Source: Candidatus Nanoarchaeia archaeon
GTDB taxonomy: Archaea > Nanobdellota > Nanobdellia > Woesearchaeales > JACPBV01
Length of the DNA: 64,000 nt
Direction of reading: 5' to 3'
Assembly: GCA_028279655.1 (NCBI GenBank)
Contig: JANQNH010000007.1
Span: 35,338-99,337, forward strand
Shown: one piece after another, positions 8,381 through 54,916 of the stretch
Layout: each line of letters opens with the position of its first letter
Numbering within the stretch: position 1 is the stretch's first letter
Notes under the pieces: model-generated
Told to the model about the DNA's origin: nothing
Seen by the model: only the letters and a program-made list of their open reading frames with translations
Databases searched by the model: none
Made by a program: the position numbers and the translations under genes

Positions 8381-8429
8381 ACACAAAAAACGAAGTTTTT
8401 ATATATGCCCTATTTTTCTTTATTTTATT

Positions 8430-9710: not shown

Positions 9711-9720
9711 TATAAAAAAA

Positions 9721-11309: not shown

Positions 11310-11319
11310 TTATATAACT
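11308..11319. promoter_or_regulatory. perfect 12-bp palindrome AGTTATATAACT between TATA and vapB-1 start (operator candidate)
   Basis: Read directly; the location is the one typically seen for antitoxin autoregulation. Confidence 0.4.
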
Positions 11320-11339
11320 ATAATTTATGGTGATATAAC

Positions 11340-11552: not shown

Positions 11553-11938
11553 GGGAAAACCAACCGCTCTTAGTTGACTCTTGTGTTTGGATAGAGTTAA
11601 TAAGGGGAAGCAAAATAGGAAAAACATTAAAAAAATATATTGATGGAGATTATGATATTCTGATTAGTTCCATAACCATCACAGAAGTCTATCATTACAC
11701 ACTAAAGTATGAGGGTGAAACCTTAGCAAAAAGATTCCTTAACTTTATGATACAAAGGTCTTTCACCATACCGGTAATAAAAGATATAGCGATAAAAGCA
11801 GCTGAAATAAAAACAGAAAAAAAGTGGGGTATTGGCGATTCAATAATATATGCAACATGCTTAGCAAGAGAAGCTAAAATATTAACTTGTGATTCTGATT
11901 TTCGTAATGAAGAAAGAGCAATATACTTAAAAAAATAA
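11537..11938 (+). CDS. vapC: PIN-domain toxin
   Basis: 133 aa, LLVDSCVWIE (first acidic residue), ...IGDSIIYATC..., LTCDSDF; 16-nt overlap with antitoxin. Confidence 0.8.
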   Translation: MEEEIRENQPLLVDSCVWIELIRGSKIGKTLKKYIDGDYDILISSITITEVYHYTLKYEGETLAKRFLNFMIQRSFTIPVIKDIAIKAAEIKTEKKWGIGDSIIYATCLAREAKILTCDSDFRNEERAIYLKK

Positions 11939-11939
11939 T

Positions 11940-12953: not shown

Positions 12954-12977
12954 AAAAAAGAAGAAAAAAAGGTTATT

Positions 12978-12990
12978 TATAAAGATTATG
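12978..12990 (-). promoter_or_regulatory. BRE/TATA promoter (minus strand CATAATCTTTATA) of asd
   Basis: 13-mer identical at 37958-37970 (lysK) and 48866-48878 (gdhA); about 25 nt upstream of ATG, suggesting a leaderless mRNA. Confidence 0.55.
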
Positions 12991-13009
12991 TTAGGATGGT
13001 AACAGATTA

Positions 13010-14191: not shown

Positions 14192-14302
14192 ATATTCTAG
14201 GGCTTTTGCAGCAGTATTATATTTACCTGGATTAATTTTTTGTAGTGCTTTTGCTCTCTTGAAATCAGATGATGATATTTCGATTCACCTTTGGTAGTCT
14301 TA

Positions 14303-15562: not shown

Positions 15563-15606
15563 TTTTTATCCCTCCTAATCATATTGTCTAGTTTTAAAAT
15601 TAAAAA

Positions 15607-17136: not shown

Positions 17137-17169
17137 CTTTCAATCACCCTCCAATTATTTCACAATATA

Positions 17170-18396: not shown

Positions 18397-18455
18397 TTTA
18401 GTTACCTCATCAATTGTATTTAAACACCTAACATTAAAAAACTAAAAATGGAAGA

Positions 18456-19826
18456 TTAACCAGCATTCCTAATTACCGCATCATAAGCTTCCCTTAGTTT
18501 GTTCTCCAGCAATTCTTGTCTACCGCTTCTCAGAGTTAGAACCTTTCCACCATTTTCTCTCCTCATAACCCATTTTTCAATATCCTTAAAATTAGTTGTT
18601 CCTTCAGCAATCTTCTTACCCATCCCTGTTTGTGATGAAGCATATCTATCCACCAACGGTTTGCTCAATGTACCTTCTCTAATTAGATAATCAGCAATAA
18701 GTAATCCTTTTGCCAGAGCATCTACACTACCAATATGTGCGTGAAATATATCATCTAAATCCGTAGATCCTCTTCTAACCTTTGCATCGAAGTTACACCC
18801 ACCAGAAAGACCCCCTTGCTGCATAACCGGCATTAAAACCAATGCTGCTTCTATTGGATCTGTGAGGAATTGATCAGTATCCCAGCCACATGTAGGATCT
18901 CCCCTATTGATATCCATACTCCCAAGTTTACCGGCATTTGCCGCTGTAACCACATCATGTTGGAACGTGTGCCCTGCAAGAGTAGCATGATTATTCTCCA
19001 AATTCAATTCAAAATCATCTTCAAGACCAAATTCCTTCAAGAAGGCTAAACAAGTCGCTGCATCATAATCATATTGATGGCTTGAAGGTTCCCTTGGTTT
19101 CGGCTCAATATAGAATTTTCCCTTAAATCCTTGGCTTCTTCCATAGTCTCTTGCCATAGTCAAGAAAGCTCCAAGTTGTTCCCTCTCCTTCTTCATATCA
19201 GTATTGATTAACGCCTCATATCCTTCCCTTCCTCCCCAAAAGACATAACCTCGACCGCCCAGTTGAATAGTGGCGTCAATAGCAGCTTTAACTTGGCAAG
19301 CGGCATAACCGATCACAGCAGTATCTGGATTAGTAGCAGCACCATGAGTATATCTTGGGTGAGAAAATAGATTTGCAGTTCCCCAAAGATTTTTCTTACC
19401 TGTACCTCTCTGATAAGCATCAGCCAAATCTACCATCTTTTGAAGGTTAAACTTTGATTGCTTTACTGTATCTCCTTCGGGAGCGATATCTCTATCATGA
19501 AAACACCAATAGTCTACTCCAAGCTTTGTAAAAAGCTCAAAGGCAGCATCCATTGTATTTTCAGCAACTTTCATAGGATCATCACCCTGACCCCATGGTC
19601 TATTGTAAACATCAATCGGACCAAACGGATCAGCTCCACTCCCCTTAAATGTATGCCAATAACAAACAGCCATACTAAGCCATTCAGCCATTGTCTTACC
19701 TTGGATTTTTTTATTTGGTTGATACCATTTATACGCAAATGGATCTTTTGAGTCATGACCATCAAATTTTACCATCACATCTCTAAAATATGTATTTGTT
19801 GGTTCCCTTGCTGCTAGTTTTACCAT
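18456..19826 (-). CDS. xylA: xylose isomerase (class II, bacterial type)
   Basis: Collinear with E. coli XylA: CYWHTF, WCFHDRDI, LWGTANLFSHPRY, WGGREGYE, IEPKPREPSSHQYDYD, NHATLAGHTF, WDTDQF, NFDAKVRR. Confidence 0.95.
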   Translation of the reverse strand: MVKLAAREPTNTYFRDVMVKFDGHDSKDPFAYKWYQPNKKIQGKTMAEWLSMAVCYWHTFKGSGADPFGPIDVYNRPWGQGDDPMKVAENTMDAAFELFTKLGVDYWCFHDRDIAPEGDTVKQSKFNLQKMVDLADAYQRGTGKKNLWGTANLFSHPRYTHGAATNPDTAVIGYAACQVKAAIDATIQLGGRGYVFWGGREGYEALINTDMKKEREQLGAFLTMARDYGRSQGFKGKFYIEPKPREPSSHQYDYDAATCLAFLKEFGLEDDFELNLENNHATLAGHTFQHDVVTAANAGKLGSMDINRGDPTCGWDTDQFLTDPIEAALVLMPVMQQGGLSGGCNFDAKVRRGSTDLDDIFHAHIGSVDALAKGLLIADYLIREGTLSKPLVDRYASSQTGMGKKIAEGTTNFKDIEKWVMRRENGGKVLTLRSGRQELLENKLREAYDAVIRNAG

Positions 19827-20031
19827 CTTACATCCCTCCCGATTATTTTTTTATCTGAACATTTCATTAAATACCCTAAGAAAAAGTTCAAATCCCTATC
19901 TAAGGTCTGATTTATCGTTTAAATCCCCCTAAAACTAAGATTACAAGAACAAATATCTAACTCATTTATATATTTTCCTATTTCTCGACGACAAATTATG
20001 TCCCAAACTGGTGGTAAAAAACAAATATTAT

Positions 20032-20697
20032 TTAATCAAAGCTATCTAGCAATCCATCCCTATCGGCAACCTTCCTTCTGCCTTTCAAGGACAACCATGT
20101 AAGGGTTGGAACCCACCACAAAAGGTTAGCCTGCATGAACGCAACCCTCATATCCTCTGGAATAGTATTATAATTTACATATTGCAGGGCATTCCAAACA
20201 GTAACTGTCCCTATAGTTGCTTTCAAGTATTCCTTAAATGGGATATTAGAAACCGTCTTTTCCTTGAAATTTTTCCAAAAACCCCTTAAACCCTTTTTTT
20301 GGTTCCTATCATACCTGAATATATCAATATAATTCCTTATCAATTCCTTAACCTTATAATCCTTTTTCTCTCCAATGCTATTATTTATGAAAAAGAAGGC
20401 ATTCACAAGGTTACCCCAAAAATTAGGGCCAAGTGCACCTTGCACTAATGGATTTTCAGATATATATTCTCCAACCAATTCCCCAGATGTGACTAGTCCT
20501 TCAATACATACACCATATACTGGAGCTAGTTTTGCACTGTAGACAACCTTTTTCCAATCAACCTTCCTGTCTACAACCAAATGAGATATTGCTTCAGCAA
20601 TAGGGAAAACCACTTCTGCTGTTATCAATGACTGGTAGATGCCAGGAAGATTTTGATAACTTACGTAGAGGTCATTAACCATTCCACCAATATCCAT
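20032..20697 (-). CDS. Mpv17/PMP22-like membrane protein
   Basis: C-terminal WNALQYVNYNTIPEDMRVAFMQANLLWWVPTLTW aligns without gaps to human MPV17 [34 protein letters not shown] (W,A,Q,N,P,R,A,Q,W,L,W identical). Confidence 0.5.
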   Translation of the reverse strand: MDIGGMVNDLYVSYQNLPGIYQSLITAEVVFPIAEAISHLVVDRKVDWKKVVYSAKLAPVYGVCIEGLVTSGELVGEYISENPLVQGALGPNFWGNLVNAFFFINNSIGEKKDYKVKELIRNYIDIFRYDRNQKKGLRGFWKNFKEKTVSNIPFKEYLKATIGTVTVWNALQYVNYNTIPEDMRVAFMQANLLWWVPTLTWLSLKGRRKVADRDGLLDSFD

Positions 20698-20770
20698 TTC
20701 TTCAAAATACCCCCATTACCTTTTCTTTAAGCATAAGAATAAGTCCTTATTTAAAAATCTACTCAAAGAA

Positions 20771-21367
20771 TTAGAGAACAAACCTTAACCTATCAGGAAT
20801 AAGCAAGGGGAACTCAATAAAGTCTATATCCCAACTCTGAAGATACTCCTTAATACCTTCCGAACTCTGAACCGGGCATAAGATTATTGAACCAGAAAAC
20901 TTGATTGCACTAAGTTCTTTTAAAACTCCTTTCTGACCATTACGCCCATATAGACTGTAATAAAATCGCATCCTGTTTGATTTACTAAATCCCTTTAACT
21001 CGTACTTAAAAAGCACAAAGTTCATATACCCTAATCCTCTTGATAAAAAATTATCATAGACCAGACTATATCCCTCTGCCAAAAAAGCTTCTCTTGCCTT
21101 AAAGGAGGGATCCAACAGATCCTTATAAGTTTTATCAATAATCTCTACATCAAATCCAATTTTTTCAATCTCCTTTCTGAATTCATAACTAAGGTCAATA
21201 TCCTTTTTATTTTTATACAGTATTAGGATATCGACATCCTGTGGGTTACTTTTCCCCCTTAAGGAAGAACCAAAAAGGACTATATCAAACAATTCATCCT
21301 TGTTCTTATTAAAAAATTGATTAACACTAGTCCTGAATTTTGTGTTCTTTAATAATTTCTTTAACAT
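20771..21367 (-). CDS. minimal nucleotidyltransferase (MNT)-domain protein
   Basis: LFGSSLRGKSNPQDVDILI (GS...DxD NTase motif); overlaps upstream HEPN gene. Confidence 0.7.
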   Translation of the reverse strand: MLKKLLKNTKFRTSVNQFFNKNKDELFDIVLFGSSLRGKSNPQDVDILILYKNKKDIDLSYEFRKEIEKIGFDVEIIDKTYKDLLDPSFKAREAFLAEGYSLVYDNFLSRGLGYMNFVLFKYELKGFSKSNRMRFYYSLYGRNGQKGVLKELSAIKFSGSIILCPVQSSEGIKEYLQSWDIDFIEFPLLIPDRLRFVL

Positions 21368-21665
21368 TTTTCCTCAACTTATCACATGTTTCCTTATCTA
21401 TTGATATAGAATATGTACTTCTATAGATCCCAAAATACTTATCCAAAAAAACATACAACTCAGGATACTTGTCCTGCAGCATCCTAAATCTTTCAGTATG
21501 GTCCTTAGGTGTTTTTCCCTCTGATCTTAGAAGGATAAAATCCAGGATGCTAAAAACAGCTTTAAAATAAAGGATTGTAGCAGAAGTATAATCCTTATTA
21601 GAATAAACAAGTTCTGCAGAACCTAGTATGGTCTTTATGTTCTTTAAAAGCTCCTCTTGAGTCAT
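21327..21665 (-). CDS. HEPN-domain protein
   Basis: About 112 aa all-helical, pattern ...YSNKDYTSATILYFKAVFSILD...PKDHTERF; paired with MNT; ATG at 21665 preferred. Confidence 0.6.
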   Translation of the reverse strand: MTQEELLKNIKTILGSAELVYSNKDYTSATILYFKAVFSILDFILLRSEGKTPKDHTERFRMLQDKYPELYVFLDKYFGIYRSTYSISIDKETCDKLRKNVKEIIKEHKIQD

Positions 21666-21779
21666 GTTGGTAATAAAAACAAATATCAACTATTTAAACT
21701 TTTCGGTTGGTATTACAAACATTGTTGGTACTACAAACAAAAATTAGCAAACAACATTTATTTGTTGGCATTACAAACA
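21666..21779. repeat. four copies of a 16-nt box GTTGGTAYTACAAACA flanking the HEPN/MNT-1 promoter
   Basis: Boxes at 21666-21681 (14/16), 21706-21721, 21724-21739, 21764-21779; minus-strand BRE/TATA CCGAAAAGTTTAAATAG at 21690-21706 lies between boxes. Confidence 0.6.
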
Positions 21780-21850
21780 AAACAACAAAAGCAAAAACCT
21801 TAACAAAATTGAATGAAAACACGAATGCAGAAGGAAAAACCGGCGACATT

Positions 21851-21979
21851 AAATTCCGAAGGAATTTATGGCTTTTTTCTAAGTGTGGTTTTTTCCTTTG
21901 TTCACAAATTACGAAGTAATTTTGAACTAGGAAAAACGAAGTTTTTCCGTGGTGAGTAGGGCTTTACAAAGTAAAGACC
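21851..21979. repeat. array of four stem-GAA-stem hairpins
   Basis: AAATTCC-GAA-GGAATTT (21851-67), GTTCAcAAATTAC-GAA-GTAATTTTGAAC (21900-27), GGAAAAAC-GAA-GTTTTTCC (21930-48), GGGCTTTAC-AAA-GTAAAGaCC (21959-79). Confidence 0.7.
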
Positions 21980-22082
21980 GTGTTTGAGTCCATTATTGTT
22001 GTTGAGGTTTTCATAAATAAAATAAATTCATTAAGATAATAACAAAACCATTATAAACAATAAATAACTACCAAAAACCAAG

Positions 22083-23336
22083 ATGCAGGCAAATATAGGG
22101 ATAATAGGAACGGGAACAGTTGGCTCTGGAGTTATTGAGATAATAAAAAACCAGAAAGACCTGATAAAAAATAGGACAGGGGTAGAGATAAACATAAAGA
22201 AGGTCTGCAACCGGACAATAGAAAAAGCAAAAGCATTGATTGATGAATCAAAGATAACAGAAAGCTATGAAGATATAATAAATGACAACGAGATAGACAT
22301 AGTCCTGGAATTGATCGGAGGCTACGATCCTGCAAAAGACATAATCATAAGCTCCCTAAAGAACAAAAAACATGTAGTTACTGCAAACAAAGCAGTGATA
22401 GCAAAGTATGGAAAAGAAATTCTAGAAGAAGCAAAAAACAACAACGTAAGTATTGCCTTCGAAGCTTCAGTTGGAGCCTCAATCCCAATCATAAAGACAA
22501 TCAAAGAAAGCTACGCTCCAGACAGTATCCAGCAAATCTACGGCATCCTAAACGGAACAACTAACTATATCCTTACAAGGATGGAAGAAGGAATGTCCTA
22601 TGAAGAAGCCCTAAAAAAAGCCCAGGACCTAGGTTTCGCAGAAGCAGATCCAGAATTTGATGTAGAAGGTAAAGACGCAGCACAAAAACTGGTTATCCTA
22701 GCAAAACTCGCTTTCAATGGAGATTTGGACGACAATATCTTCACGTGGGGAATTACAAAGATAAGCAAAAACGACATAAGGTATGCAGCAGACCTTGGAT
22801 ATAAGATTAAGCTTTTAGCAATAGCAAAGCAAGACGATGAGATTGAATTAAGGGTGCACCCAACGATGATACCTAAGGACCATGAACTGGCATCCGTAAA
22901 CAACGAGCTGAATGCAATATATCTTATCGGAAAGCAGACAACAAAATCAATGCTCTATGGAAAAGGCGCTGGAAAGCTGCCAACAGCAACAGCAGTGGTT
23001 GCAGACATAATAGATATAGCAAAAAACAAACAAGATAACCTATACCTCAAAGAGACAAAAAAGAAGGATATAAACAAGATCACCTCAAGATACTATCTAA
23101 GATATAATGTTATTGACAAACCAGGAGTCCTTGCTCAAGTCGCAAAGATACTAGGAGAAAATAATATAAGCATTGCTGCTGTCCAGCAAAAAGAGATAAA
23201 CAAGGATGTTGTCCCAGTTATTGTAATCACCCATGAAGCCTTGGAAGAGAACATGATCAAAGCAATAAAAGAGATAGACCAACTAGAAGTAGCAAAAGAA
23301 CCTACTGTCCTTATAAGAATTGAAGATATACATTAA
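22083..23336 (+). CDS. hom: homoserine dehydrogenase with C-terminal ACT domain
   Basis: IGIIGTGTVGSG N-terminus, VVTANK, GILNGTTNYILT, EADPEFDVEGKDAAQKL; 417 aa. Confidence 0.92.
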   Translation: MQANIGIIGTGTVGSGVIEIIKNQKDLIKNRTGVEINIKKVCNRTIEKAKALIDESKITESYEDIINDNEIDIVLELIGGYDPAKDIIISSLKNKKHVVTANKAVIAKYGKEILEEAKNNNVSIAFEASVGASIPIIKTIKESYAPDSIQQIYGILNGTTNYILTRMEEGMSYEEALKKAQDLGFAEADPEFDVEGKDAAQKLVILAKLAFNGDLDDNIFTWGITKISKNDIRYAADLGYKIKLLAIAKQDDEIELRVHPTMIPKDHELASVNNELNAIYLIGKQTTKSMLYGKGAGKLPTATAVVADIIDIAKNKQDNLYLKETKKKDINKITSRYYLRYNVIDKPGVLAQVAKILGENNISIAAVQQKEINKDVVPVIVITHEALEENMIKAIKEIDQLEVAKEPTVLIRIEDIH

Positions 23337-36375: not shown

Positions 36376-37932
36376 TCAGACCTTCTTAAGAAGATCGACT
36401 ACTCTCTCCTTACCTAATGTAAGGATAAAAGGTGCAAGCTTAGGCCCCCTGTCCTTATCGATAAGCACATTATAACATATCTTAAAGAAATGCTTAGGAT
36501 CCATATCGCTGCCTTTAGCAATGGTGTAGAATTCCTCATACAACAGCTTCTCCTCTGGTTTATCATGCTTCTCAAGATAGTTCAGTAGTTTGTTTAGGGC
36601 ATTTTTCTCATTAACACCAAGTTTAGCCTTGACTTCCTCCTGAACATGGAACCTCATAGCTTCCGGAGCATACTTAGATATCCAGTTAGCGGCACATTCG
36701 ACCCTTACCCTCAACCTATCAATATCTCCTTTGCCCTTAACATTATAGCTCTCCTTTATCTTGCTGAAATCGTTCTCATATATCTGCACCACATTGCATA
36801 GGTGCCTGAAGGAGGGCTGAAGAGGCATCTTGGGTTTGGGCTTTTCAACACAACTTAGCTCATAGATACGCTTCTGTTTCCTATACTCTTTATCATCAAC
36901 CTTCTCTTTCTTGTAATATATCCTCTCACACTTATCAAAATCCTCATATATCTTTATGACATCCAGATCAAACGAGATAGCAAACTCTGTTCCAGGCTTA
37001 GTACCCGCAAAAAGGTATCTGATAATCTCAGGTTCATACACCTGCAGAACATCAGGCAATGTAGTTATATTCCCCTGTGAACTTGAGAATTGGCCCCCTC
37101 CCTTGATACCAATCCAGCCAAAGCCAAAACCAAGTGCATATTCTATATCGTAGACCTCCCTAGCAAGCAACCTTGCTGTATGAAACACACCTCCTGCTGC
37201 ATAATGGTCTTTTCCTGCACTCTCAAAATCAATATCCTTATAATTCCAGAAAGCAGGAACCTGTATCCTATACTTGAATTTAGCCAGTCCTTTTTTTCTG
37301 AAATCAAATTCCTTCCATTTATCCCCAAACCCCTTATATTTCAGGACATAACCGCCAGGATACTCAATCTCAGATACCTCCTCCCTTGTATCTTCGTCAT
37401 ATATAGATACAGGGAGCCAGGAATCAGCCAGTTCTTCTTTCCTAAACCTGTTCAGAACATCCTTGATCTTATCAGTATTCTCAAGTGCTATCTTCATCTC
37501 CTCTGCCATAACACACTTTTCATACTGGACGCTGTTTCTTATTATGGTAGGACTCAGTCCGACTACAGGAAGGTACTGTTCAAAATCAGCGATATGATAC
37601 TCAGCATAGTTCTTATGCTTTGTATCAAAGATGTTTGGGACCTCTGTCAATGGTTTCCTTAATGCCCTCTTCAGCATATCCTGCTTTGGCATGTTCTTAG
37701 GGACCTTCCTGAAAACATCGTAATCATCCCAATAGTGATAATGAATACCTTTCTTTCCCTTGTCATTTATCGCCCTTGCTATAAAATCACCCATGATAAA
37801 CTCCCTAAAGTTACCGATATGCAGCGTACCTGAAGGGGTTGCACCAGTAGCTATCCCATACTCCTTCTTATCCTTTCTCTTTATTATCTTATCCGCTGTC
37901 TGGTCAGCCCAATGCATTGATTCATCCGTCAT
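36376..37932 (-). CDS. lysK: lysyl-tRNA synthetase, class I (archaeal type)
   Basis: GTLHIGNFRE (HIGH), GGGQFSSSQGN (KMSKS equivalent), 518 aa collinear with class I LysRS. Confidence 0.9.
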   Translation of the reverse strand: MTDESMHWADQTADKIIKRKDKKEYGIATGATPSGTLHIGNFREFIMGDFIARAINDKGKKGIHYHYWDDYDVFRKVPKNMPKQDMLKRALRKPLTEVPNIFDTKHKNYAEYHIADFEQYLPVVGLSPTIIRNSVQYEKCVMAEEMKIALENTDKIKDVLNRFRKEELADSWLPVSIYDEDTREEVSEIEYPGGYVLKYKGFGDKWKEFDFRKKGLAKFKYRIQVPAFWNYKDIDFESAGKDHYAAGGVFHTARLLAREVYDIEYALGFGFGWIGIKGGGQFSSSQGNITTLPDVLQVYEPEIIRYLFAGTKPGTEFAISFDLDVIKIYEDFDKCERIYYKKEKVDDKEYRKQKRIYELSCVEKPKPKMPLQPSFRHLCNVVQIYENDFSKIKESYNVKGKGDIDRLRVRVECAANWISKYAPEAMRFHVQEEVKAKLGVNEKNALNKLLNYLEKHDKPEEKLLYEEFYTIAKGSDMDPKHFFKICYNVLIDKDRGPKLAPFILTLGKERVVDLLKKV

Positions 37933-38078: not shown

Positions 38079-40067
38079 ATGACTTTAACTGACTTATTGG
38101 ACAAAGAATATGCAATTAAATTTGTTACAGGGGATAAGGGTAAGTTTGAATGGGGAACCAAACCAAGCGAATTCAAGGCTCTTGTAGATAGGGTAGGAAT
38201 GGAAGCCCTGGTCCTTGGCGGGGATCCAGGCGGAACAAATTTTGACTGGGGACTATATCTTGAAGATAAAAAAGGAAAACTTCACCTCCTGGCATACAAT
38301 AGGGTTCCTCATGGTTATGACAAGGATAAGCCAAAGGAAACTGCACTTCCTTCTTTTCTAAAGGTGATAAACACCTTCTGGGGTGTTGCCCATTTCGCTG
38401 AACAATACTATAATGAGATAGATGCAGATTTCAAACCATTGAAAACAGGAAACTCCATACCAGGAGTTATTGAGGATTATGGTACTAGGTGGGTATCTAC
38501 GAACACACCAGAGTGGCAGAATCTTGAAGATCAGGTAGGGGGAGCCAAAGAGTTCTTCTATCCACATGGTGATGAAACAGCTATAGACATCAGAGGTATG
38601 ATAACAAGCCTAACACATTCTGAAAATAAAACCCAATTATTCAGCGAATTCCGGGCTTACAATGATCTTCGGGCAAACGGTGCAAGAGAAGCCTACCACG
38701 AAGATGGACCAGCTAGAGATGCTGCTCTTTCAATAACCGAGATGATGGGCACTGGAACAAACCTGGCTGTTTACCACATTACTCCTGATGGAAAACTTGT
38801 TGGCCATAATGCAGAGGCAGGATGGGGTGCTTATTTCGGGCGTTATATAACTGAAAAAGTTGCTCTGGAAACAATGGTTAACGATAAAGATACAAAACAG
38901 TATGAAAAGGTAGAAGCGTATGCATGGGAAGAGATAAGATCAGGAAGAGGGTGTGCAGCAGCTCTCAAATTCATGGTTGATGATGAGCTAAAGAAACAAT
39001 CAGATAATGTAGAGCATATATTCAGCCTAAAACCAAAGGATCAACCAGAAGCAATATCTATTGCTGCCCTTGAGGGAGACGTGGCATGCAAAGAAGCGTT
39101 CAATTACATAGGAGACGCAACAGGCGCATTCCTTTATGGCAGAGATAAGATATTCAAAAATCCAAAGATAGTCCTAACCCAGAACATCTACACAAAGAAT
39201 CTTGATCTGATTGCGCAAGGCCTAGTGCTGGGTTATCTTGATTGCATGGAAGATGAAGAGATCAGACCACTATATGAATCATACTTCGGTGGGGCTGCCA
39301 ATGGCCCGGGAGCAGATCTAAGAGAAACGTTAAAACAATCTATTACAGAAAGGAATATGGGTGAACCAGGTGCGGGAGAAGCATTAATAAGCAAGTTCTT
39401 CAATGGAAGGATATCTATCGATCCAGGAACAAAGACCTCCTTGGAGGGAGCAGCACTCTTAGTTACAAAGCCATTATTAGAACAACAGGATAACTATGAA
39501 GAGCCTATGAATGCAAAAGGTACTGACTTCTCTTTTGTTATAGGAGAAAAAGAGATAACCCATAAGATAACATATCACACACCAGAAGATGAAGATGTCA
39601 CATTAGAAGGGAACATTGGGATTGTACCATTCCCAACAACAGAGGTAGAAGGCATAAAACAACCATTAAGCTGTTCCTATGAATCTAAGCAACCAATGAA
39701 GAACCTGATCAGATACAGAGATGTTGCTTCAATAGGAGGATTGATTAAGCTGTATGAATCAGAAACGGGTAAAGAACTTCCAGGAGAAGTAAAAACTCAA
39801 AATGCTCAGTTCATATTAAATCATCACGACGGCACTGATAATTTACGTGATGCTACAAAAAAATGGGCAAATGCTGTTGGCTATACACTAAGAGAGGTAG
39901 CAATACAGTTCAACTACAGCAGCGACAAAAGACTTGATGTTAAAATGGAAGGACTAGATATACCAGAACCTGTACAAGACATGATAAAGAAAGCATACCT
40001 CGATACTGCTTCTAACATAAAAAATGGCCTTGAGATGCATACAAAGAGCATAAGATACGCTGCATAA
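38079..40067 (+). CDS. glucokinase (GLK family, ASKHA fold)-like domain protein with about 200-aa C-terminal extension of unknown function
   Basis: LVLGGDPGGTNFDWGLY (cf. GDxGGTN), YNDLRANG, MGTGTNLAV, AEAGWGAYF, IRSGRGCAAALKFM; 662 aa. Confidence 0.5.
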   Translation: MTLTDLLDKEYAIKFVTGDKGKFEWGTKPSEFKALVDRVGMEALVLGGDPGGTNFDWGLYLEDKKGKLHLLAYNRVPHGYDKDKPKETALPSFLKVINTFWGVAHFAEQYYNEIDADFKPLKTGNSIPGVIEDYGTRWVSTNTPEWQNLEDQVGGAKEFFYPHGDETAIDIRGMITSLTHSENKTQLFSEFRAYNDLRANGAREAYHEDGPARDAALSITEMMGTGTNLAVYHITPDGKLVGHNAEAGWGAYFGRYITEKVALETMVNDKDTKQYEKVEAYAWEEIRSGRGCAAALKFMVDDELKKQSDNVEHIFSLKPKDQPEAISIAALEGDVACKEAFNYIGDATGAFLYGRDKIFKNPKIVLTQNIYTKNLDLIAQGLVLGYLDCMEDEEIRPLYESYFGGAANGPGADLRETLKQSITERNMGEPGAGEALISKFFNGRISIDPGTKTSLEGAALLVTKPLLEQQDNYEEPMNAKGTDFSFVIGEKEITHKITYHTPEDEDVTLEGNIGIVPFPTTEVEGIKQPLSCSYESKQPMKNLIRYRDVASIGGLIKLYESETGKELPGEVKTQNAQFILNHHDGTDNLRDATKKWANAVGYTLREVAIQFNYSSDKRLDVKMEGLDIPEPVQDMIKKAYLDTASNIKNGLEMHTKSIRYAA

Positions 40068-40100
40068 TAGAACACACAATAAACATCACCAAAAAAACAT

Positions 40101-40141
40101 GATCAGATCTTCAATCTCTTAATCCTTTCAGCAGTTTCTTT
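40101..40141. repeat. left 41-bp direct repeat (orphan copy of the aminotransferase 3' end)
   Basis: 38/41 identical to 41111-41151; minus-strand reading gives KETAERIKRLKI-stop versus the gene tail KEAAERIKRLKI-stop. Confidence 0.85.
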
Positions 40142-40147
40142 CTTTTC

Positions 40148-40162
40148 CGAAACATTTAAATA
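40148..40162 (+). promoter_or_regulatory. BRE/TATA promoter CGAAACATTTAAATA of MNT/HEPN-2
   Basis: Identical 15-mer at 61621-61635; 27 nt upstream of ATG. Confidence 0.6.
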
Positions 40163-40177
40163 GAACAACCGTTCTAT
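40160..40177. promoter_or_regulatory. inverted repeat ATAGAAC-aacc-GTTCTAT between TATA and MNT-2 start (operator candidate)
   Basis: Read directly. Confidence 0.4.
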
Positions 40178-40188
40178 AAATAAAACAC

Positions 40189-40716
40189 ATGTTCGATTTA
40201 ACTAAAAAGGAAAACCTTGTACTGGCCCTTATATTAGAAAAGCCAAATAAGGAGTTCTATATCAGGGGGATTGCAAAAAAACTAAAAATAAGCCCAAGCA
40301 CAGCAAAGCTCTCTGTAGACAAATTAAAGAAGCAAGGTCTGATAGTAGAAAAAACATCTCCTGTAGTCCGTATGTTCAGAGCAAACATGGAAAGCAATCT
40401 TGTCCAAGAAAGAAAGAAGATAAAGAACCTGGACATGATAAAAAGATCAGATATTTTGGATAAAATCCAAAATCCAATATCAGCCATATTATTCGGCTCT
40501 TTCGCAAAAGGAACAAATGATGAAAAAAGCGACATTGATATTTTAATAATCACAAATAATAAAAAGCCAATAAACCTACTAGACATAAAAGGGTATGAAC
40601 TGCAGATAATCCAGCTAACTCCCCTGGAATGGAAAGAAAAAGCCAAAGGAGACAAACCATTCTATCAGGAGATAATCACAACAGGAATCCCTTTGAAAGG
40701 TGAACTTCCAGTATGA
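40189..40716 (+). CDS. nucleotidyltransferase (MNT) with N-terminal winged-helix domain
   Basis: ILFGSFAKGTNDEKSDIDILIIT NTase motif; N-terminal IRGIAKKLKISPSTAKLSVDKLKKQGLI HTH. Confidence 0.75.
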   Translation: MFDLTKKENLVLALILEKPNKEFYIRGIAKKLKISPSTAKLSVDKLKKQGLIVEKTSPVVRMFRANMESNLVQERKKIKNLDMIKRSDILDKIQNPISAILFGSFAKGTNDEKSDIDILIITNNKKPINLLDIKGYELQIIQLTPLEWKEKAKGDKPFYQEIITTGIPLKGELPV

Positions 40717-41132
40717 ATATAAAAGAATGTCTAGAAAAAGGTTATCTAAAGAAAACCAAACCAGATAAAGACAAAGCCAGACAATCATTAAAAACAGCTG
40801 AGAATAAATTTGATGAAGCATTAAAATCATTTGAAGCAGAGCTTTTTGAATCAACAATTATCTTTGCATATATGGCCATGTTTCATTCTGCAAGGTCCAT
40901 GCTATTTAAAGACGGGTTTGTAGAAAGAAGCCATATAGCTGTAATAGCCTTCCTAAAAGAGAAATATGAACAAATATTAGGAAAAGAGCTTATTTACGAG
41001 TTCAACACTGTAAGGATAGCAAGGCATGATAGTTTATATGGGCTTGACATAAACTTCTCAAGCAACGAAGCAAAACATATATTAGATATAGCTAAAAAAT
41101 TTATGGATAAGATCAAATCTTCAGTCTCTTAA
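40713..41132 (+). CDS. HEPN-domain protein
   Basis: 139 aa, ...ESTIIFAYMAMFHSARSML...VRIARHDSLYG; ATGA overlap with MNT. Confidence 0.7.
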   Translation: MNIKECLEKGYLKKTKPDKDKARQSLKTAENKFDEALKSFEAELFESTIIFAYMAMFHSARSMLFKDGFVERSHIAVIAFLKEKYEQILGKELIYEFNTVRIARHDSLYGLDINFSSNEAKHILDIAKKFMDKIKSSVS

Positions 41133-41151
41133 TCCTTTCAGCAGCTTCTTT
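41111..41151. repeat. right 41-bp direct repeat (functional 3' end of aminotransferase gene, also encodes the HEPN C-terminus on the other strand)
   Basis: See the left repeat. Confidence 0.85.
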
Positions 41152-42288
41152 ACAGTCATGAACAGAAGGAACTAGTGCAAATCTGACGTATTCTTCTCCA
41201 GGATTAAGATCATCAACAGAGTTAGATATCCAGGAACCAGGTGTAGTTACAATCCCAACATCCTTATCCAGCAGCTTTTTGGCAAAATCCACACAGCCCA
41301 TTCCATCGGGAACCTTCTGCCAGATGTATATGCCTGCCTTAGGGCTGCAATCACTCAACCCTATCTGTGTAAGAGCATCAACAATGATGTCTCTTTTCTT
41401 CTTATAGGATCTCCGGAACTCCTCAACATGTTTCTCATCAAGAAGCGCAGCAGAAGCAGCATCCTGTATAAAAGTAGCTGTCCCTGAGTCTATATTTGTC
41501 TTTACCTTCTTAAAGATATCAACAACCCAGGGGTCACCCATCACCCAGCCTACCCTATAGGTAGTCATTGCACTTCTCTTGCTCAAACTCTGTATAGCAA
41601 AGACCCCTTCTCTTTCTAACTCTAATATAGAGATTGGCTTTTCATCATAATAAAGCTCTGTATAACATTCATCCGACCCAATTATTACATTGTTATCCTT
41701 TCCAAAGTCAATAACCTCTTTTAACTTCTCTTTGGAGATCATCGCACCAGTAGGGTTGTTTGGATAATTTACCCACATAATCTTAGCCTTCTTCCGAACA
41801 TCAGCAGGTACCTTATCAAGATCAGGAAGAAAACCATTTGAAGAGAGTAAAGGATAGAAATAAGGTTTTCCTTCTGCAAACAAGGTTCCTCTCTCATAAG
41901 GAGGATATCCGGGATTAGGCATTATAACATAATCTCCAGGATTCACAAAACCTTCAGGAAGGTTAAACACTGCCTCCTTTGCACCTAGGCTGCTACAGAT
42001 CTCAGTATCAACATCAAGTTCAACACCGAACCTTCCCACTACCCACTTAGCAACAGTCTCCCTAAAATCACTGGAACCTATATAAGAAGGATAGCCAGAA
42101 CTCATCTGCTTATCGATGGCCCTCTTGCAATAATTCCTAATCAATCCAGGGGTAGGCTCCTTAGGATCCCCAACACCAAAATCAATTGGCTCTATCCCCA
42201 GCTTCCTAAGCTTAGCTACCTCATTATCAACATCAGCAAACGCATAACTCCCTATAGACTTTACCCTGTCACTAGCCTCAACCTTCAT
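41113..42288 (-). CDS. class I/II aminotransferase, candidate LL-diaminopimelate aminotransferase (DapL) or DapC-like
   Basis: PLP-lysine block QSLSKRSAMTTYRVGW, NYPNNPTG; the only aminotransferase among the DAP-pathway genes here; no dapD/dapE seen in the window. Confidence 0.6.
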   Translation of the reverse strand: MKVEASDRVKSIGSYAFADVDNEVAKLRKLGIEPIDFGVGDPKEPTPGLIRNYCKRAIDKQMSSGYPSYIGSSDFRETVAKWVVGRFGVELDVDTEICSSLGAKEAVFNLPEGFVNPGDYVIMPNPGYPPYERGTLFAEGKPYFYPLLSSNGFLPDLDKVPADVRKKAKIMWVNYPNNPTGAMISKEKLKEVIDFGKDNNVIIGSDECYTELYYDEKPISILELEREGVFAIQSLSKRSAMTTYRVGWVMGDPWVVDIFKKVKTNIDSGTATFIQDAASAALLDEKHVEEFRRSYKKKRDIIVDALTQIGLSDCSPKAGIYIWQKVPDGMGCVDFAKKLLDKDVGIVTTPGSWISNSVDDLNPGEEYVRFALVPSVHDCKEAAERIKRLKI

Positions 42289-42353: not shown

Positions 42354-43340
42354 TTACTTGGCCTTGTACAGTACAATAGTGCCCAGAGGTAATTTCCTAG
42401 GATCTATCTCGCTTGCCTTATGCAGCCTTTTTCCAATCATATAGTATGTAGATGGGCTTTTCCAGTTCTTGCCAGCATGGCTATAAGGTGTCCTTTTATC
42501 GCCTTCAAGCCTCCCTATCTCATAGTCCTTAAACATCTTTGTCCTTATAAGGTATCTTCTTAAAGATTCAATCTCTTTATCCTCTCTTCGGGTATTAACC
42601 TTGATCTCATCGGTTGGGCTAAGGATTTGTTCTGGTTCTTTAGGTGATTTAGAGCCATACAGTACCTTCTCAAGCCCTGGCTCAGCAACGACCAATCTTC
42701 CTGCTCTTACATCCGGATCATAGCCAGGTCCTTCCCCTAATCCCATCTTCTTCCTTGATTTAGGAGAAGCAAGCAGCATAGCACATTTTCTGTATCTGTG
42801 GGGTTTTGGATGCCACCTATTAGGCTCTCCATAAGAGACCATAGAGTGTGTAAGGATCCTCTCATCTTTGATACCATATTTCCTCTTTAGTTTAGATAAA
42901 AGATTCCTAAGAGAACGATACTGCTCTGCTGTTATATCCTTCTTATGGGAACCCTGCATCTCTATCCCAATACTGGAATCATTAAGCTTGGTTCTTCCCT
43001 CCCACATGCTTGTTCCTGCATGATGCGCAACCTTATCATCATCAATGACCTGGTGTACACCACCCCTATCATCAATAAAGTAATGGGCACTGCCTTTTTC
43101 CTTAACATCGTATATCCCATTGAAGTTTCCTTCAGATGTATGCAATATTATCAGGTCTGTCAGATCCCTGTTCCTTCTTTTATCATTTTCAGGACTCATA
43201 AAAGACTTGTCAACATAGAGTTCTGCTTCTGAAAAAACGTATGAAGGACAAGTCAAGACAGCAATACCAACAGCTACTCTGCTGAAAAAGCCCCTACGTG
43301 TCATCTTTTCAAGACCCACTGATGGTTTTTCTTTTTTCAT
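42354..43340 (-). CDS. N-acetylmuramoyl-L-alanine amidase (Amidase_2/PGRP fold) with twin-arginine signal and C-terminal extension
   Basis: MTRRGFFSRVAVGIAVL Tat motif; LIILHTSEG, SAHYFIDDRGGVHQVI, AHHAG, NDSSIGIEMQG, ILTHSMV...RKC. Confidence 0.75.
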   Translation of the reverse strand: MKKEKPSVGLEKMTRRGFFSRVAVGIAVLTCPSYVFSEAELYVDKSFMSPENDKRRNRDLTDLIILHTSEGNFNGIYDVKEKGSAHYFIDDRGGVHQVIDDDKVAHHAGTSMWEGRTKLNDSSIGIEMQGSHKKDITAEQYRSLRNLLSKLKRKYGIKDERILTHSMVSYGEPNRWHPKPHRYRKCAMLLASPKSRKKMGLGEGPGYDPDVRAGRLVVAEPGLEKVLYGSKSPKEPEQILSPTDEIKVNTRREDKEIESLRRYLIRTKMFKDYEIGRLEGDKRTPYSHAGKNWKSPSTYYMIGKRLHKASEIDPRKLPLGTIVLYKAK

Positions 43341-52004: not shown

Positions 52005-53267
52005 TCAAACCTTAAACTTACCTAGTTTCTTAAAATCCAGAGTAGCAAAATAATCATCGACCTTTTCAGAACGTCTTATCTCAACAACCGATCCATCCTC
52101 CCTCATCAAGAGCTCTGCTGAGCGCAGCTTACCGTTATAATTAAAGCCCATAGCATGACCATGTGCACCTGTATCATGAATTACGACAATGTCCCCTACC
52201 TCAACCTCTGGAAGAATACGATCTATTGCAAACTTATCGTTGTTCTCGCATAATGAACCAGTAACATCATACATATGTGTTGGTTTTTCGTTTTCTTTAC
52301 CTAGAACAGTAATGTGGTGGTATGCCCCATAGACTGCAGGCCTCATCAAATTAGCCATCGATGCGTCTAACCCAACATAATCTTTGTAGATATGCTTCAT
52401 ATGTATAACTCTTGCAACCAAATAACCATACGGACCAGCCATATTTCTTCCATATTCAGTAAAAATCTTAAGGGGTGGAAGGCCATTTGCAGCAATAATC
52501 TCATCATAAAGCTTTTTTACCTCTGCAGCCACATAATCAATATCCACCGGTTTGTCAGTCGGCTTATAAGGTATCCCAACTCCGCCACCAAAATTAACAA
52601 ACTCTATCCTAATACCCAATTTTTCATTTACCTCTACAACTAACTCAAACAACATCTTTGCAGTTTGAACAAAAGAGGAGGGGTCTAGTTCATTAGAAAC
52701 AACCATCGTATGTAGCCCAAATCTCTTAACGCCTTTCTCTTTCATCAACTTATAACCCTCGAATAACTGCTCTTTGGTAAAACCATACTTAGCTTCCTTA
52801 GGATCACCAATAAACCTGCTTCCTTTTCTTTCAGGACCAGGATTATATCTAAAGCAGATCAGTTCAGGTATTCCTGCGGTTTTCTCTAACATCTCAATAT
52901 GGCTTATATCATCTAGATTGATTATGGCTCCAAGCTCCTTAGCTTTTGCAAACTCCTCTGCAGGTGTGTCATTAGAGCTGAACATTATATTCTCCCCAGC
53001 AATCCCAACCTTCTCTGCAAGCAACAGTTCAGGAAGAGAGCTACAGTCTAATCCAAACCCTTCATCCTTCATGATCTTTAGGATAAATGGATTAGGCAAG
53101 CACTTTACGGCAAAGAACTCTTTAAACTCAAAATCTTTAAATGCCTTTTTCAGTCTAACAGCATTCTCCCTTATCCCCTTCTCATCATATATATGGAAAG
53201 GAGTTTTATGTTTATCCATAATCCCTGATATCTTCTTCTTTGTAAAAGGTAGTTTCTTAACCATCAT
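52005..53267 (-). CDS. lysA: diaminopimelate decarboxylase
   Basis: Fold-III PLP decarboxylase blocks (FFAVKCLPN, FGGGVGIPY, EYGRNMAGP, CENNDKF, HDTGAHGHAM). Confidence 0.88.
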   Translation of the reverse strand: MMVKKLPFTKKKISGIMDKHKTPFHIYDEKGIRENAVRLKKAFKDFEFKEFFAVKCLPNPFILKIMKDEGFGLDCSSLPELLLAEKVGIAGENIMFSSNDTPAEEFAKAKELGAIINLDDISHIEMLEKTAGIPELICFRYNPGPERKGSRFIGDPKEAKYGFTKEQLFEGYKLMKEKGVKRFGLHTMVVSNELDPSSFVQTAKMLFELVVEVNEKLGIRIEFVNFGGGVGIPYKPTDKPVDIDYVAAEVKKLYDEIIAANGLPPLKIFTEYGRNMAGPYGYLVARVIHMKHIYKDYVGLDASMANLMRPAVYGAYHHITVLGKENEKPTHMYDVTGSLCENNDKFAIDRILPEVEVGDIVVIHDTGAHGHAMGFNYNGKLRSAELLMREDGSVVEIRRSEKVDDYFATLDFKKLGKFKV

Positions 53268-53315
53268 AACCTCAAGACAACAATAAATAAGTTAAAAGAA
53301 AATATATAAATCTTC

Positions 53316-54194
53316 CTAAATGATCCCCATCTGCCCTAAGACCTCTCTTAGCCTCTCCTTGCTCTCAGGCCTTAACTCGCACATCGGAAGCCTATATGCC
53401 TCTTCGCACATCCCTTTCATTGCAAGAGCGCATTTTATTGGTATGGGGTTGGTTTCTATAAACTCAACATCAAATAGGGGTTCCAGCTCGCTGTTCATCT
53501 TCTCCGCTTCCGCAAAATTCCCATCCAACGCAGCCTTAACCATTGCCGTCATCCTATCAGGAACCAGATTAGAAGCAACCGAGATAACACCATTACCTCC
53601 TGCTTTGATAAGCTCCAAAGTTATATTATCATCTCCAGAAAGCACAGAAAAGCCATCAGGTCTCTGTGCTATAACATCCTTCATCTGATCTATATCTCCA
53701 GAGGCCTCCTTTACTGCAACAATATTGGAGCAGTCCTTTACCAATCTCATCAGTGTAGAGGTCTCAACATTAACACCGGTTCTTCCCTTAATGTTATAGA
53801 CGACTATAGGTATTTTCACAGAATCAGCAATAGCCTTGAAATGCCTGTACAACCCTTCCTGTGTAGGTTTATTGTAATAGGGGTTTACAACAAGACAGGC
53901 TGTAACGCCTACAGACTCTGCATGTTTTGTAAGCCTTATAGCCTCTGCAGTTGAATTAGAACCCGTACCAGCAATAACCGGAACACGGCCATTGACATGC
54001 TGAACAGTCAATTCAATAACCTTGTCGTGCTCATCATGGCTCAGTGTTGGGCTCTCCCCGGTCGTCCCACATGGAACAATCCCAGAGATACCCTTTTCAA
54101 TATTGAAGTCTATGAGCTTCTTCAAACATTCTTCACTCACACTTCCATCTGCTTTAAATGGTGTAATTATTGCCGTATAAACGCCTTTAAACAT
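53316..54194 (-). CDS. dapA: 4-hydroxy-tetrahydrodipicolinate synthase
   Basis: AIITPF, CGTTGESPTL, YNKP, VAVKEASGD; ATG at 54194 with GGAGGGTGA SD. Confidence 0.93.
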   Translation of the reverse strand: MFKGVYTAIITPFKADGSVSEECLKKLIDFNIEKGISGIVPCGTTGESPTLSHDEHDKVIELTVQHVNGRVPVIAGTGSNSTAEAIRLTKHAESVGVTACLVVNPYYNKPTQEGLYRHFKAIADSVKIPIVVYNIKGRTGVNVETSTLMRLVKDCSNIVAVKEASGDIDQMKDVIAQRPDGFSVLSGDDNITLELIKAGGNGVISVASNLVPDRMTAMVKAALDGNFAEAEKMNSELEPLFDVEFIETNPIPIKCALAMKGMCEEAYRLPMCELRPESKERLREVLGQMGII

Positions 54195-54211
54195 TTCGAT
54201 CACCCTCCAAT

Positions 54212-54916
54212 CTACTTAATTATCTCATCCATCATATCTTCTATACTATAAAACCCTTTCTTGCCGTTGATCCATTCAGCTGCCATAACAGCTCCGATGG
54301 CAAATCCTTTCCTGTTCTTTGCCCTGTGCTCCAATGTAATGACATCAGCGTATGATTCAAAATTGACAGTATGTGTTCCGGGTATCTCCCCTTCCCTTAT
54401 GCTTTTGATGTCTACATCATCAACTCTATCCAAGCCATTCTTAATAACATCTGCTATCTTCTTGGCCGTGCCTGAAGGGGCATCCTTCTTGTGTATGTGG
54501 TGCGCTTCGCTCATATTAACTCCATAATCCTTAAAGGTGTTCATCATTCCAGAGATATCCTTAATAAGCCTAAAGAATATGTTGACCCCTACTGAAAAAT
54601 TAGGGGAATAGATAAAGCCTATTTTGTTATCTTCAACTGCATCCTTTACCTCTTCTATCCTTTCATACCATGCGGTTGTACCTACCACAATATTCTTTCC
54701 CAAAGCAGCTATCTTCTTTACATTCTCAACAGCTATATCCGGAGCAGTAAACTCTATACAAACATCCACGCCCTTCAGAGATTCTGAACTGATCTCCTTA
54801 TGGGTTGCTCCCTCTGCAACAGGATCTATCTTAGACACCACCTTAAGTCCTTTCTCTAATGCGATCTCCTCGATTATATGTCCCATCTTCCCATATCCTA
54901 TTATTGCTATGTTCAT
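54212..54916 (-). CDS. dapB: 4-hydroxy-tetrahydrodipicolinate reductase (short form)
   Basis: MNIAIIGYGKMG, SPNFSVGVN, EAHHIHKKDAPSGTA. Confidence 0.9.
   Translation of the reverse strand: MNIAIIGYGKMGHIIEEIALEKGLKVVSKIDPVAEGATHKEISSESLKGVDVCIEFTAPDIAVENVKKIAALGKNIVVGTTAWYERIEEVKDAVEDNKIGFIYSPNFSVGVNIFFRLIKDISGMMNTFKDYGVNMSEAHHIHKKDAPSGTAKKIADVIKNGLDRVDDVDIKSIREGEIPGTHTVNFESYADVITLEHRAKNRKGFAIGAVMAAEWINGKKGFYSIEDMMDEIIK

Follow-up and report, generated by a model that had tools for sequence, protein, structure and literature searches.

Why is the 3' end of an aminotransferase gene present twice, about 1 kb apart, on a contig of a DPANN archaeon, and how did a pair of toxin-antitoxin-like genes come to lie between the two copies? 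We consider this question for a stretch of 64,000 nucleotides from Candidatus Nanoarchaeia archaeon (contig JANQNH010000007.1, positions 35,338 to 99,337), hereafter called the window, whose first letter is position 1. Two 41-bp direct repeats in this window correspond to the end of a gene for a DapL-like aminotransferase (AT), and they bracket genes for a minimal nucleotidyltransferase (MNT) and a HEPN protein. A first-pass annotation, made from the letters alone, had proposed that this cassette inserted at the 3' end of the AT gene while regenerating that end. Cassette-free sites in relatives and other cargo with a duplicated AT tail agree with this proposal, and sequence comparisons support an insertion within the last 12 codons of the AT gene, whose end would have been regenerated in the process. 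We consider it probable that the 41-bp pair represents the two junctions of a self-contained MNT/HEPN cassette of ~1 kb (PADLOC candidate system PDC-M05) that was placed through recombination between homologous AT tails.

Related loci are designated by L-numbers, and at most 6 to 10 kb were seen around each related gene.

Two copies of one gene end

The features of the cassette and its borders are as follows.

40091..40097, minus strand: run of seven T just past the orphan stop codon (A7 on the plus strand)
40101..40141, minus strand: left repeat copy, orphan (displaced) AT 3' end reading KETAERIKRLKI-stop; no open reading frame (ORF) of 40 or more amino acids spans it
40142..40188, plus strand: left end of the cassette with its promoter (BRE-like CGAAAC, TATA box TTTAAATA)
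40160..40177, no strand assigned: operator-like inverted repeat ATAGAAC-AACC-GTTCTAT (7+7), overlapping the TATA box
40189..40716, plus strand: winged helix-turn-helix (wHTH) and MNT (MntA-like) protein, 175 amino acids, motif GSFAKGTNDEKSDIDIL, matched in Pfam, NCBIfam and PADLOC
40713..41132, plus strand: HEPN protein (UPF0332/AF0298-like), 139 amino acids, Pfam HEPN E 4e-14
41111..41151, minus strand: right repeat copy, functional AT 3' end reading KEAAERIKRLKI-stop, of which 41113-41132 is read on both strands
41113..42288, minus strand: target gene, class I/II aminotransferase with best matches to LL-diaminopimelate aminotransferase (DapL), Pfam Aminotran_1_2 E 2e-57

The copies at 40101-40141 (GATCAGATCTTCAATCTCTTAATCCTTTCAGCAGTTTCTTT) and 41111-41151 (GATCAAATCTTCAGTCTCTTAATCCTTTCAGCAGCTTCTTT) are identical at 38 of 41 positions and are spaced 1010 bp from start to start, and these values, which the first-pass annotation had given, were recovered independently by a repeat finder and by a pattern search. 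On the minus strand, the right copy ends in ...KEAAERIKRLKI-TGA and is the true end of the 391-amino-acid AT, and on the plus strand it contains the end of the HEPN gene, as the ORFs at 41113-42288 and 40713-41132 confirm. The left copy ends in ...KETAERIKRLKI-TGA, with its stop codon at 40103-40105, and is part of no ORF. Translation also bears out the earlier description of the left copy as an orphan tail with mostly silent differences: of the three mismatches (40106/41116, 40114/41124 and 40135/41145), two are synonymous and one exchanges Ala for Thr, which is too few for arguing selection on the copies. The T7 run at 40091-40097 is presumably the former oligo-T terminator of the AT gene, a role that we assign from the general use of oligo-T termination in archaea.

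A chance origin of the pair is ruled out by dinucleotide shuffles of the window, none of which (0 of 100) gave a match of this kind, and by a scan of the whole window, in which the pair is the sole convincing direct repeat across 64 kb. An assembly artefact is unlikely, since the longest identical run is 20 nucleotides and the same architecture is found in independent assemblies (L007 and L084; L017 and L087). A search for more copies, which the first-pass annotation had suggested, was run on the window with a degenerate 41-mer and returned only the two known places. Among GTDB genomes the 20-mer core matched only two unrelated Treponema contigs, and a degenerate tail pattern matched 13 stretches, mostly by chance, plus the known double match in the contig of L017. 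The repeat has neither dyad symmetry nor a hairpin (DNA fold z of +0.5 to +1.6), and no Rfam match was found at 38-43 kb. There are no tRNA genes in the window, which eliminates an attachment (att) site of the tRNA type.

The cassette and its target gene

The unique DNA between the repeats amounts to 969 bp (40142-41110), and contains the promoter, the operator-like inverted repeat and the two genes that had been noted at first reading. An archaeal-type TATA box (TTTAAATA, 40155-40162) lies 26 nucleotides upstream of the MNT start codon, and the MNT/HEPN message is consequently predicted to be near-leaderless. The inverted repeat at 40160-40177 folds with z = -3.97, and 0 of 200 shuffled sequences fold equally well. 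The block of promoter and operator is kept in all homologues of the cassette (L007, L166, L164, L170, L172, L173, L174 and L191), even in L191, although its MNT protein is only 51% identical. This conservation fits autoregulation, in which the wHTH domain of the MNT protein would bind the putative operator.

The MNT protein matches a MarR-type HTH and NTP_transf_2/Polbeta in Pfam (E 1e-11), MntA_antitoxin in NCBIfam at a score under the family cut-off (E 5e-9) and PDC-M05A in PADLOC (E 1e-19), and the HEPN protein matches PDC-M05B (E 1e-5). The stop codon of the MNT gene and the start codon of the HEPN gene overlap in ATGA (40713-40716); overlapping adjacent genes and a nucleotidyltransferase motif G-S-x(9-13)-D-x-D are hallmarks of type VII-like MNT/HEPN systems, and both are present. 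The pair thus resembles MntA/HepT type VII systems, the UPF0332/AF0298 HEPN proteins and PDC-M05 in MNT-HEPN order, 4-nucleotide overlap, the motif G-S-x11-D-x-D and HEPN fold family, but it differs from MntA/HepT in that the HEPN protein has R-x4-Y instead of R-x4-6-H and in the N-terminal wHTH of the MNT protein. The canonical HEPN catalytic motif R-x(4-6)-H is not present in the HEPN protein of the window, whose residues ~101-110 read R-HDSL-Y-G and so place Tyr at the position of the His of canonical HEPN RNases. AF0298 (PDB 2hsb) and all relatives of the cassette show this replacement too. RNase activity is therefore not to be assumed, and the toxin may differ from a standard HEPN RNase.

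The last six codons and the stop codon of the HEPN gene are inside the right repeat, where the gene overlaps the AT gene by 20 nucleotides. The alignment of the HEPN protein to AF0298 (E 6e-8) reaches the last C-terminal residues, and the C-terminus that the repeat encodes is therefore a native part of the fold and not the result of read-through. A single stretch of 20 nucleotides (41113-41132) encodes the last six codons and the stop codon of both genes, and five or more diverged lineages have this overlap at an identical base. It is a stable sequence that, read on both strands, specifies the C-termini of two unrelated proteins.

The target gene is likely dapL. Its product matches PRK09276/TIGR03540 in NCBIfam with E 1e-118 to 1e-121, at scores below the curated cut-offs (406 bits vs 507 for PRK09276, 393 vs 593 for TIGR03540), and the name is backed by its position among lysine and threonine pathway genes (dapA, dapB, a lysA-like gene, asd, and genes for aspartate kinase and homoserine dehydrogenase).

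Empty sites in related lineages

Two further features of the window border the region that varies among relatives.

36376..37932, minus strand: class I lysyl-tRNA synthetase (LysRS), the conserved far border of the variable region, Pfam tRNA-synt_1f E 9e-94
38079..40067, plus strand: ORF of 662 amino acids between the orphan tail and LysRS, without a family match

The closest relatives of the AT have 71-84% protein identity. Three of them, L085 (80%), L086 (79%) and L088 (78%), represent empty sites with a single tail copy and no scar; the AT stop codon is followed by 36-55 bp that contain the LysRS promoter, then by LysRS and then by aspartate kinase. Cassette-free relatives with two tail copies, which would separate the repeat from the insertion, do not occur among the loci seen. 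The empty site that the first-pass annotation had envisaged was thus found as far as its single tail copy is concerned, but the neighbor of the AT gene there is LysRS and not, as had been expected, the 662-amino-acid gene. The order AT, LysRS and aspartate kinase is shared by the empty-site relatives, and the LysRS promoter, LysRS and aspartate kinase of the window are all present beyond the orphan tail and the 662-amino-acid gene. That gene has no match in Pfam, NCBIfam or PADLOC and no relative at any fetched locus, and, judged against the empty sites, it is a second insert beside the cassette.

In L085, the LysRS leader (7185-7220) contains a palindrome, ATAGAAT-CATT-ATTCTAT, that resembles the half-sites of the MNT operator. 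A relation between the two was considered and dismissed as probably a coincidence, as the palindrome is not conserved in the window, L086, L088 and L003.

The same cassette at the same junction

The wHTH-MNT/HEPN cassette is found at an identical junction in at least four other diverged lineages. The same 20-nucleotide overlap of HEPN and AT stop codons is present in L007/L084, L166-L168 and L170/L171, and a remodelled form in L164/L165. Relative to the window, L007/L084 has identities of 80% (AT), 71% (MNT) and 78% (HEPN), and the MNT proteins of L166-L168 and L170/L171 are 66% and 68% identical, respectively. The left neighbors of the cassette all differ, and include a 283-amino-acid gene, a HAD hydrolase, a 248-amino-acid gene, a 192-amino-acid gene and LysRS. 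Orphan tails across these lineages form a decay series, from well kept to absent:

Window: 38/41
L007: 21/22, spacing 1001, with 9 nucleotides missing in the proximal half
L173: about 24 nucleotides (...NIKKLEF-stop)
L166: 22/28
L170: barely above noise
L174/L175: none; the cassette adjoins the LysRS promoter

Cassettes of this kind also occur elsewhere without bracketing repeats (L172, L190 and L191, the last beside the eIF2-gamma gene). In L172 the cassette lies among other genes and the end of HEPN retains tail-derived sequence. The duplication therefore belongs to the site and not to the cassette, and these three loci refute the idea that the cassette makes target duplications wherever it lands. 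A scan of GTDB genomes with MNT peptide patterns gave no match, with exact 8-mers required, and L007 shows that relatives exist there.

Several contigs with related AT genes (L005, L007, L010 and L017; L011 and L013-L015) are labelled "uncultured Methanosarcinales", Deltaproteobacteria, Planctomycetes or Zixibacteria, names that probably stem from bin labels or from mis-binning and not from true taxonomy.

Other cargo at the same gene end

In L017/L087, L004/L089 and L090, a gene for a 290-amino-acid Fic protein (Pfam Fic E 1e-21; PADLOC SoFic E 7e-31) is convergent with the AT gene. By eye, the protein has the motif HPFGDGNGR and an inhibitory-type motif TNAIEG. The stop codon of the Fic gene is the antisense of the last AT codon, and every Fic locus has an orphan AT tail beyond the Fic promoter. 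The orphan of L017 has 30 identical nucleotides and then diverges (...KLNL-stop in the real tail, ...KLEL-stop in the orphan), that of L004 has 17 perfectly matched nucleotides, including a lineage-specific GGG codon, and that of L090 is a more decayed copy.

L101, the closest relative of the AT of the window (84% over 241 amino acids), has yet another cargo. A 149-amino-acid ORF of no known family (L101:800-1249) is flanked on one side by the real tail and on the other by an orphan of about 118 nucleotides, which is 95% identical over 80 nucleotides and extends ~25 nucleotides past the stop codon. Beside this orphan, at L101:1250-1295, is a remnant in reverse orientation that matches the MNT promoter and operator at 41 of 46 positions, implying that an MNT/HEPN cassette was once there and that its body was replaced by the 149-amino-acid ORF. 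In L164 (5001-6907) and also in L165, the old MNT gene and its promoter are intact and the HEPN gene is cut to eight codons (MNIKLRKS-stop), while a second, distant pair of wHTH-MNT (194 amino acids) and HEPN (157 amino acids) lies between the old MNT and AT genes on the AT strand, in what looks like serial remodelling.

This gene end thus has at least four kinds of small cargo on record, as well as clean empty sites. Tail duplications measure 0, about 22, 41, about 45 or about 118 nucleotides across loci. From these comparisons, the AT tail is a recurrent point of insertion and replacement.

Two other genes were seen downstream of related AT genes. A UvrD/GajB-like helicase (PADLOC GajB, E 9e-64) is encoded between the Fic cassette and LysRS in L004 (5060-7144), which suggests that defence-type cargo collects in this interval. 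In L095 (7774-8205), an IS200-like Y1 transposase gene (Pfam Y1_Tnp, E 1e-21) lies ~600 bp downstream of AT, and there is no orphan tail.

Age of the cassette and similarity of the copies

Identities among the MNT proteins of different lineages are star-like at 65-76%, as are AT identities, and the closest hosts carry the closest MNT pair (L166 and L164: AT 90%, MNT 94%). Overall GC content of the cassette is 0.31-0.35, compared with ~0.41 in the flanks, and a foreign origin might be read from this difference. However, GC content at third codon positions (GC3) of MNT and AT genes is 0.36/0.37 in the window, 0.19/0.22 in L007 and 0.19/0.18 in L166. GC3 follows each host, so the low total reflects protein composition and the foreign reading is ruled out. 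The cassette is, from these comparisons, an old resident that diverges vertically with its hosts, and not a recent import.

In a neighbor-joining (NJ) tree of the AT, a distance tree without support values, lineages do not sort by whether they carry MNT/HEPN, Fic or an empty site, and the window groups with L101, L085 and L088. Weak as this tree is, the interleaving of cargo states points to repeated loss or replacement. AT genes of different lineages have ~65-80% DNA identity in every 150-nucleotide window; this sliding comparison shows no clear breakpoint, and a mosaic AT gene whose 3' part was imported with the cassette is rejected.

Within each genome, orphan and real tails are unusually close. 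In a comparison with all sampled tails, the orphans of the window and of L101 each come closest to the real tail of their own locus, at 36/42 in the window (next best 32/42) and 38/42 in L101. Over the proximal half, the orphans of L017 and L004 show no mismatch to the real tail of the same locus (18/18; GGG codon). Identical blocks flanked by mismatches extend over 66 nucleotides in L101, 30 in L017 and 20 in the window. Had the scar simply aged along with the cassette, it should no longer be recognisable, yet the copies are alike, so they co-evolve or are regenerated. The 93% identity of the repeats in the window must therefore have been maintained or renewed, and gene conversion or rounds of excision and re-integration in the population are two possible routes.

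The distal half of the L017 orphan behaves differently, matching real tails of other lineages at 22 of 24 positions and its own at only 16 of 24. At Fic loci the final codon of the real AT tails specifies Leu and is complementary to the Fic stop codon, whereas the orphans have the ending of ordinary tails. This is the pattern that Campbell-type recombination predicts, with the distal end of the real gene derived from the insert and that of the orphan from the host. Divergence under the new overlap of Fic and AT is an alternative explanation of the L017 distal half.

How the cassette may have been placed

Placement through tail homology would proceed as follows. A circular DNA carrying a copy of the AT tail would recombine with the chromosomal tail in the manner of Campbell, yielding two hybrid tail copies. 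The same homology would permit precise deletion, producing empty sites, as well as replacement of the cargo, and gene conversion or re-integration could keep the copies alike within each genome. Loss of an addictive toxin-antitoxin pair is presumably counter-selected, and the cargo would therefore persist between direct repeats at a site that loses other cargo. As to the enzyme, we tentatively prefer homologous recombination by the host across the short stretch of shared tail, which we consider slightly likelier than a site-specific recombinase supplied in trans, itself a possible but less favored agent. Variable repeat lengths, identical blocks amid mismatches and the failure to find an integrase or an attP replicon would argue for the former, and the similar proximal boundary and the fit to archaeal att lengths for the latter. 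The att-site-like behavior noted at first reading stands as a pattern that site-specific recombination might account for, and homologous recombination fits the data about equally well.

A number of results weigh against placement by tail recombination. No recombinase or transposase was found in Pfam among the 37 window ORFs tested, and between the repeats there are only MNT and HEPN. The first-pass annotation had likewise reported the absence of an integrase. No tail copy was found in the viral contigs of IMG/VR, which also held no useful relatives of AT or Fic, and PLSDB and INPHARED contain no close relatives of the MNT protein, the best match being 28% identical, from a Bradyrhizobium plasmid. 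Among Logan contigs of the source coral metagenome there is one contig at 15x with no alternative joint, and thus a single form and no circular one. The NJ tree of the AT is poorly resolved, so counts of gain and loss are soft. One defined att site does not predict variable repeat lengths, and a single ancestral event needs erosion to explain them; the L174/L175 cassette adjoins the LysRS promoter without any orphan. Stretches of 22-41 bp are short for efficient homologous recombination.

A possible, though rather doubtful, alternative is that the cassette is an att-flanked, integrase-less module like the cis-mobilizable elements (CIMEs) of bacteria, moved by a tyrosine-type recombinase in trans that a larger element targeting this dapL-tail att site, or the host (as Xer), would supply. 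Direct repeats at a gene 3' end whose end is regenerated are expected of such a module. The proximal boundary falls at codons -12 to -14 (39-45 nucleotides) in the MNT/HEPN cassette of the window and in the Fic loci L004, L017 and L090, and the length of the repeat is within the archaeal att range, which is 29-69 bp in Crenarchaeota (PMC6563490). Cargo arrays split by partial target copies are known, moreover, from tycheposons (bioRxiv 10.1101/2020.12.28.424599). However, neither the window nor ~25 related loci, viewed up to 6 kb downstream, yielded a recognisable integrase, a few of the downstream ORFs having been run through Pfam and the rest read by eye; the viral contigs without a tail copy count against this alternative as well, repeats of 22 and about 118 nucleotides do not fit one att site, and the repeat has neither dyad symmetry nor a hairpin. 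It is less probable that the cassette is the remnant of a large, integrase-bearing virus or plasmid that was integrated at the tail and then deleted down to the toxin-antitoxin pair and two att copies. Toxin-antitoxin pairs are generally known to resist loss, and the orphan is eroded to variable degrees on its cassette-facing side (about 118, 41, 22 and 0 nucleotides). Elements integrated at the 3' ends of archaeal protein genes are known (PMC6563490). Yet MNT/HEPN, Fic and the 149-amino-acid ORF share a minimal layout, no other element genes occur in ~15 occupied loci, and the HEPN end is joined to the tail at precisely the same base in all lineages.

The left copy might instead be a functional element under selection, for example a terminator or insulator between the 662-amino-acid gene and the cassette promoter, which is improbable in our view. 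T-rich runs at both edges (T7 at 40091-40097 on the minus strand, TTTCTTTCTTTTCC at 40136-40149 on the plus strand) and the two synonymous differences out of three would suit such a role, but three differences are insufficient to show selection, the copy has no structure or Rfam match, orphans recur even though the left neighbor varies by lineage, and the orphan is absent or decayed in L174, L170 and L164, where the cassette is retained. A recent horizontal arrival from another lineage, with the repeats as a fresh scar, could be read from their 93% identity and from the cassette's total GC content of 0.31-0.35 against ~0.41 in the flanks. It is very improbable, given that MNT matches the host AT in GC3 (0.36 against 0.37) and that cassette GC3 falls with the host in relatives of lower GC content, that the nearest relatives of the cassette are only 71-73% identical, and that part of this cassette survives in L101, the closest AT relative. 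The alternative that we would least expect to be true is transposition in which a long target-site duplication is made by a transposase specific to the cassette or a Cas1-like integrase. It would explain why direct repeats of target sequence bracket the insert, but a repeat finder detected no terminal inverted repeats at the cassette ends, there is no transposase, the length of the duplication varies, related cassettes elsewhere have no flanking duplication, and the site is common to unrelated cargos.

Two structured kinds of site were also considered. The repeat does not fold like an integron attC and no IntI integrase is present in the tested ORFs, and the 41-mer has no dyad as expected of dif-like flanking sites. 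Without a hairpin or dyad in the 41-mer, an integron attC or dif-like site was rejected.

Comparison with known systems

Archaeal elements are known to integrate into 3'-distal parts of protein genes, with att sites of 8-69 bp and a new stop codon supplied by the element (PMC6563490). The integrated mobile genetic elements (iMGEs) of Thaumarchaeota, for which empty and occupied sites exist in related genomes (Krupovic et al. 2019, PMC6563490), share with the cassette a target at the 3' end of a housekeeping gene, flanking att repeats, a gene end and stop codon supplied by the insert, empty sites, and a repeat length in the same range. These iMGEs are multi-kb in size, however, and nearly all have their own integrase, whereas the insert in the window, 1 kb long, has a toxin-antitoxin-like pair as its sole content, no integrase was found nearby, and duplication lengths vary by lineage. 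Successive inserts split by partial copies of the target are also found in the tycheposon islands of Prochlorococcus (Hackl et al., bioRxiv 10.1101/2020.12.28.424599). Both have a fixed hot spot at one conserved gene end that is reused, with partial target copies, degenerate remnants and changing cargo, but tycheposons are bacterial, target tRNA genes and carry tyrosine recombinases and replication genes.

Two other classes of integrase-less unit are also informative. In Streptococcus thermophilus, CIMEs related to the integrative and conjugative elements (ICEs) ICESt1 and ICESt3 occupy the 3' end of fda; they are flanked by attL and attR, have no recombination genes and are not known to move other than through the integrase of a partner element. 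They are like the cassette in their att-type flanks at the 3' end of a metabolic gene and their lack of recombination genes, and unlike it in that they are bacterial and larger, have a known cognate ICE and are not built around one toxin-antitoxin pair. Integron cassettes, among them the toxin-antitoxin cassettes in chromosomal super-integrons, pdif modules and integrative mobile elements exploiting Xer (IMEX) are small units without an integrase whose recombinase is encoded elsewhere. Small cargo bounded by recombination sites, typically including toxin-antitoxin genes, is the point of likeness; the repeat of the window differs in having no attC-like hairpin or dif-like dyad, there is no IntI, and the site is the coding end of a host gene. 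Compared with these systems, the locus differs in its DPANN host, minimal size, cargo of toxin type only, and lack of a structured site and of a known recombinase.

DPANN archaea have very small genomes with few mobile elements known to us, and to our knowledge little has been established about turnover of defence and toxin genes in them. A bolder form of the preferred reading, which we think unlikely as it stands, is that the dapL coding end is a landing pad in this DPANN group for integrase-less toxin and defence cassettes that are exchanged as small circles by host recombination alone. If so, cassettes would be exchanged much as in integrons but with no dedicated integrase or structured attC required, and a toxin-antitoxin pair between the repeats would secure its own place, since cells that delete it would be killed. 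The hot spot is in any case a marker for new cargo genes, as the 149- and 662-amino-acid ORFs without a known family illustrate, and a natural system in which short homology alone can be set against a trans-acting recombinase as the means of moving archaeal cassettes. A toxin-antitoxin pair between direct repeats is also a natural test of whether such pairs persist because deletion is lethal.

Neighbouring genes

The gene adjoining AT, at 42354-43340 on the minus strand, encodes an N-acetylmuramoyl-L-alanine amidase that has a signal-like segment at its N-terminus (Amidase_2, E 3e-22). One would not expect an archaeon to encode a peptidoglycan hydrolase, and the enzyme may act on bacterial neighbors. 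Amino acid and nucleotide biosynthesis is unusually full for a genome of DPANN type, with genes at 7445-23336 and 52005-54916 that include dapA, dapB, a lysA-like gene, asd, purA, pyrB, ribD and the genes for aspartate kinase and homoserine dehydrogenase.

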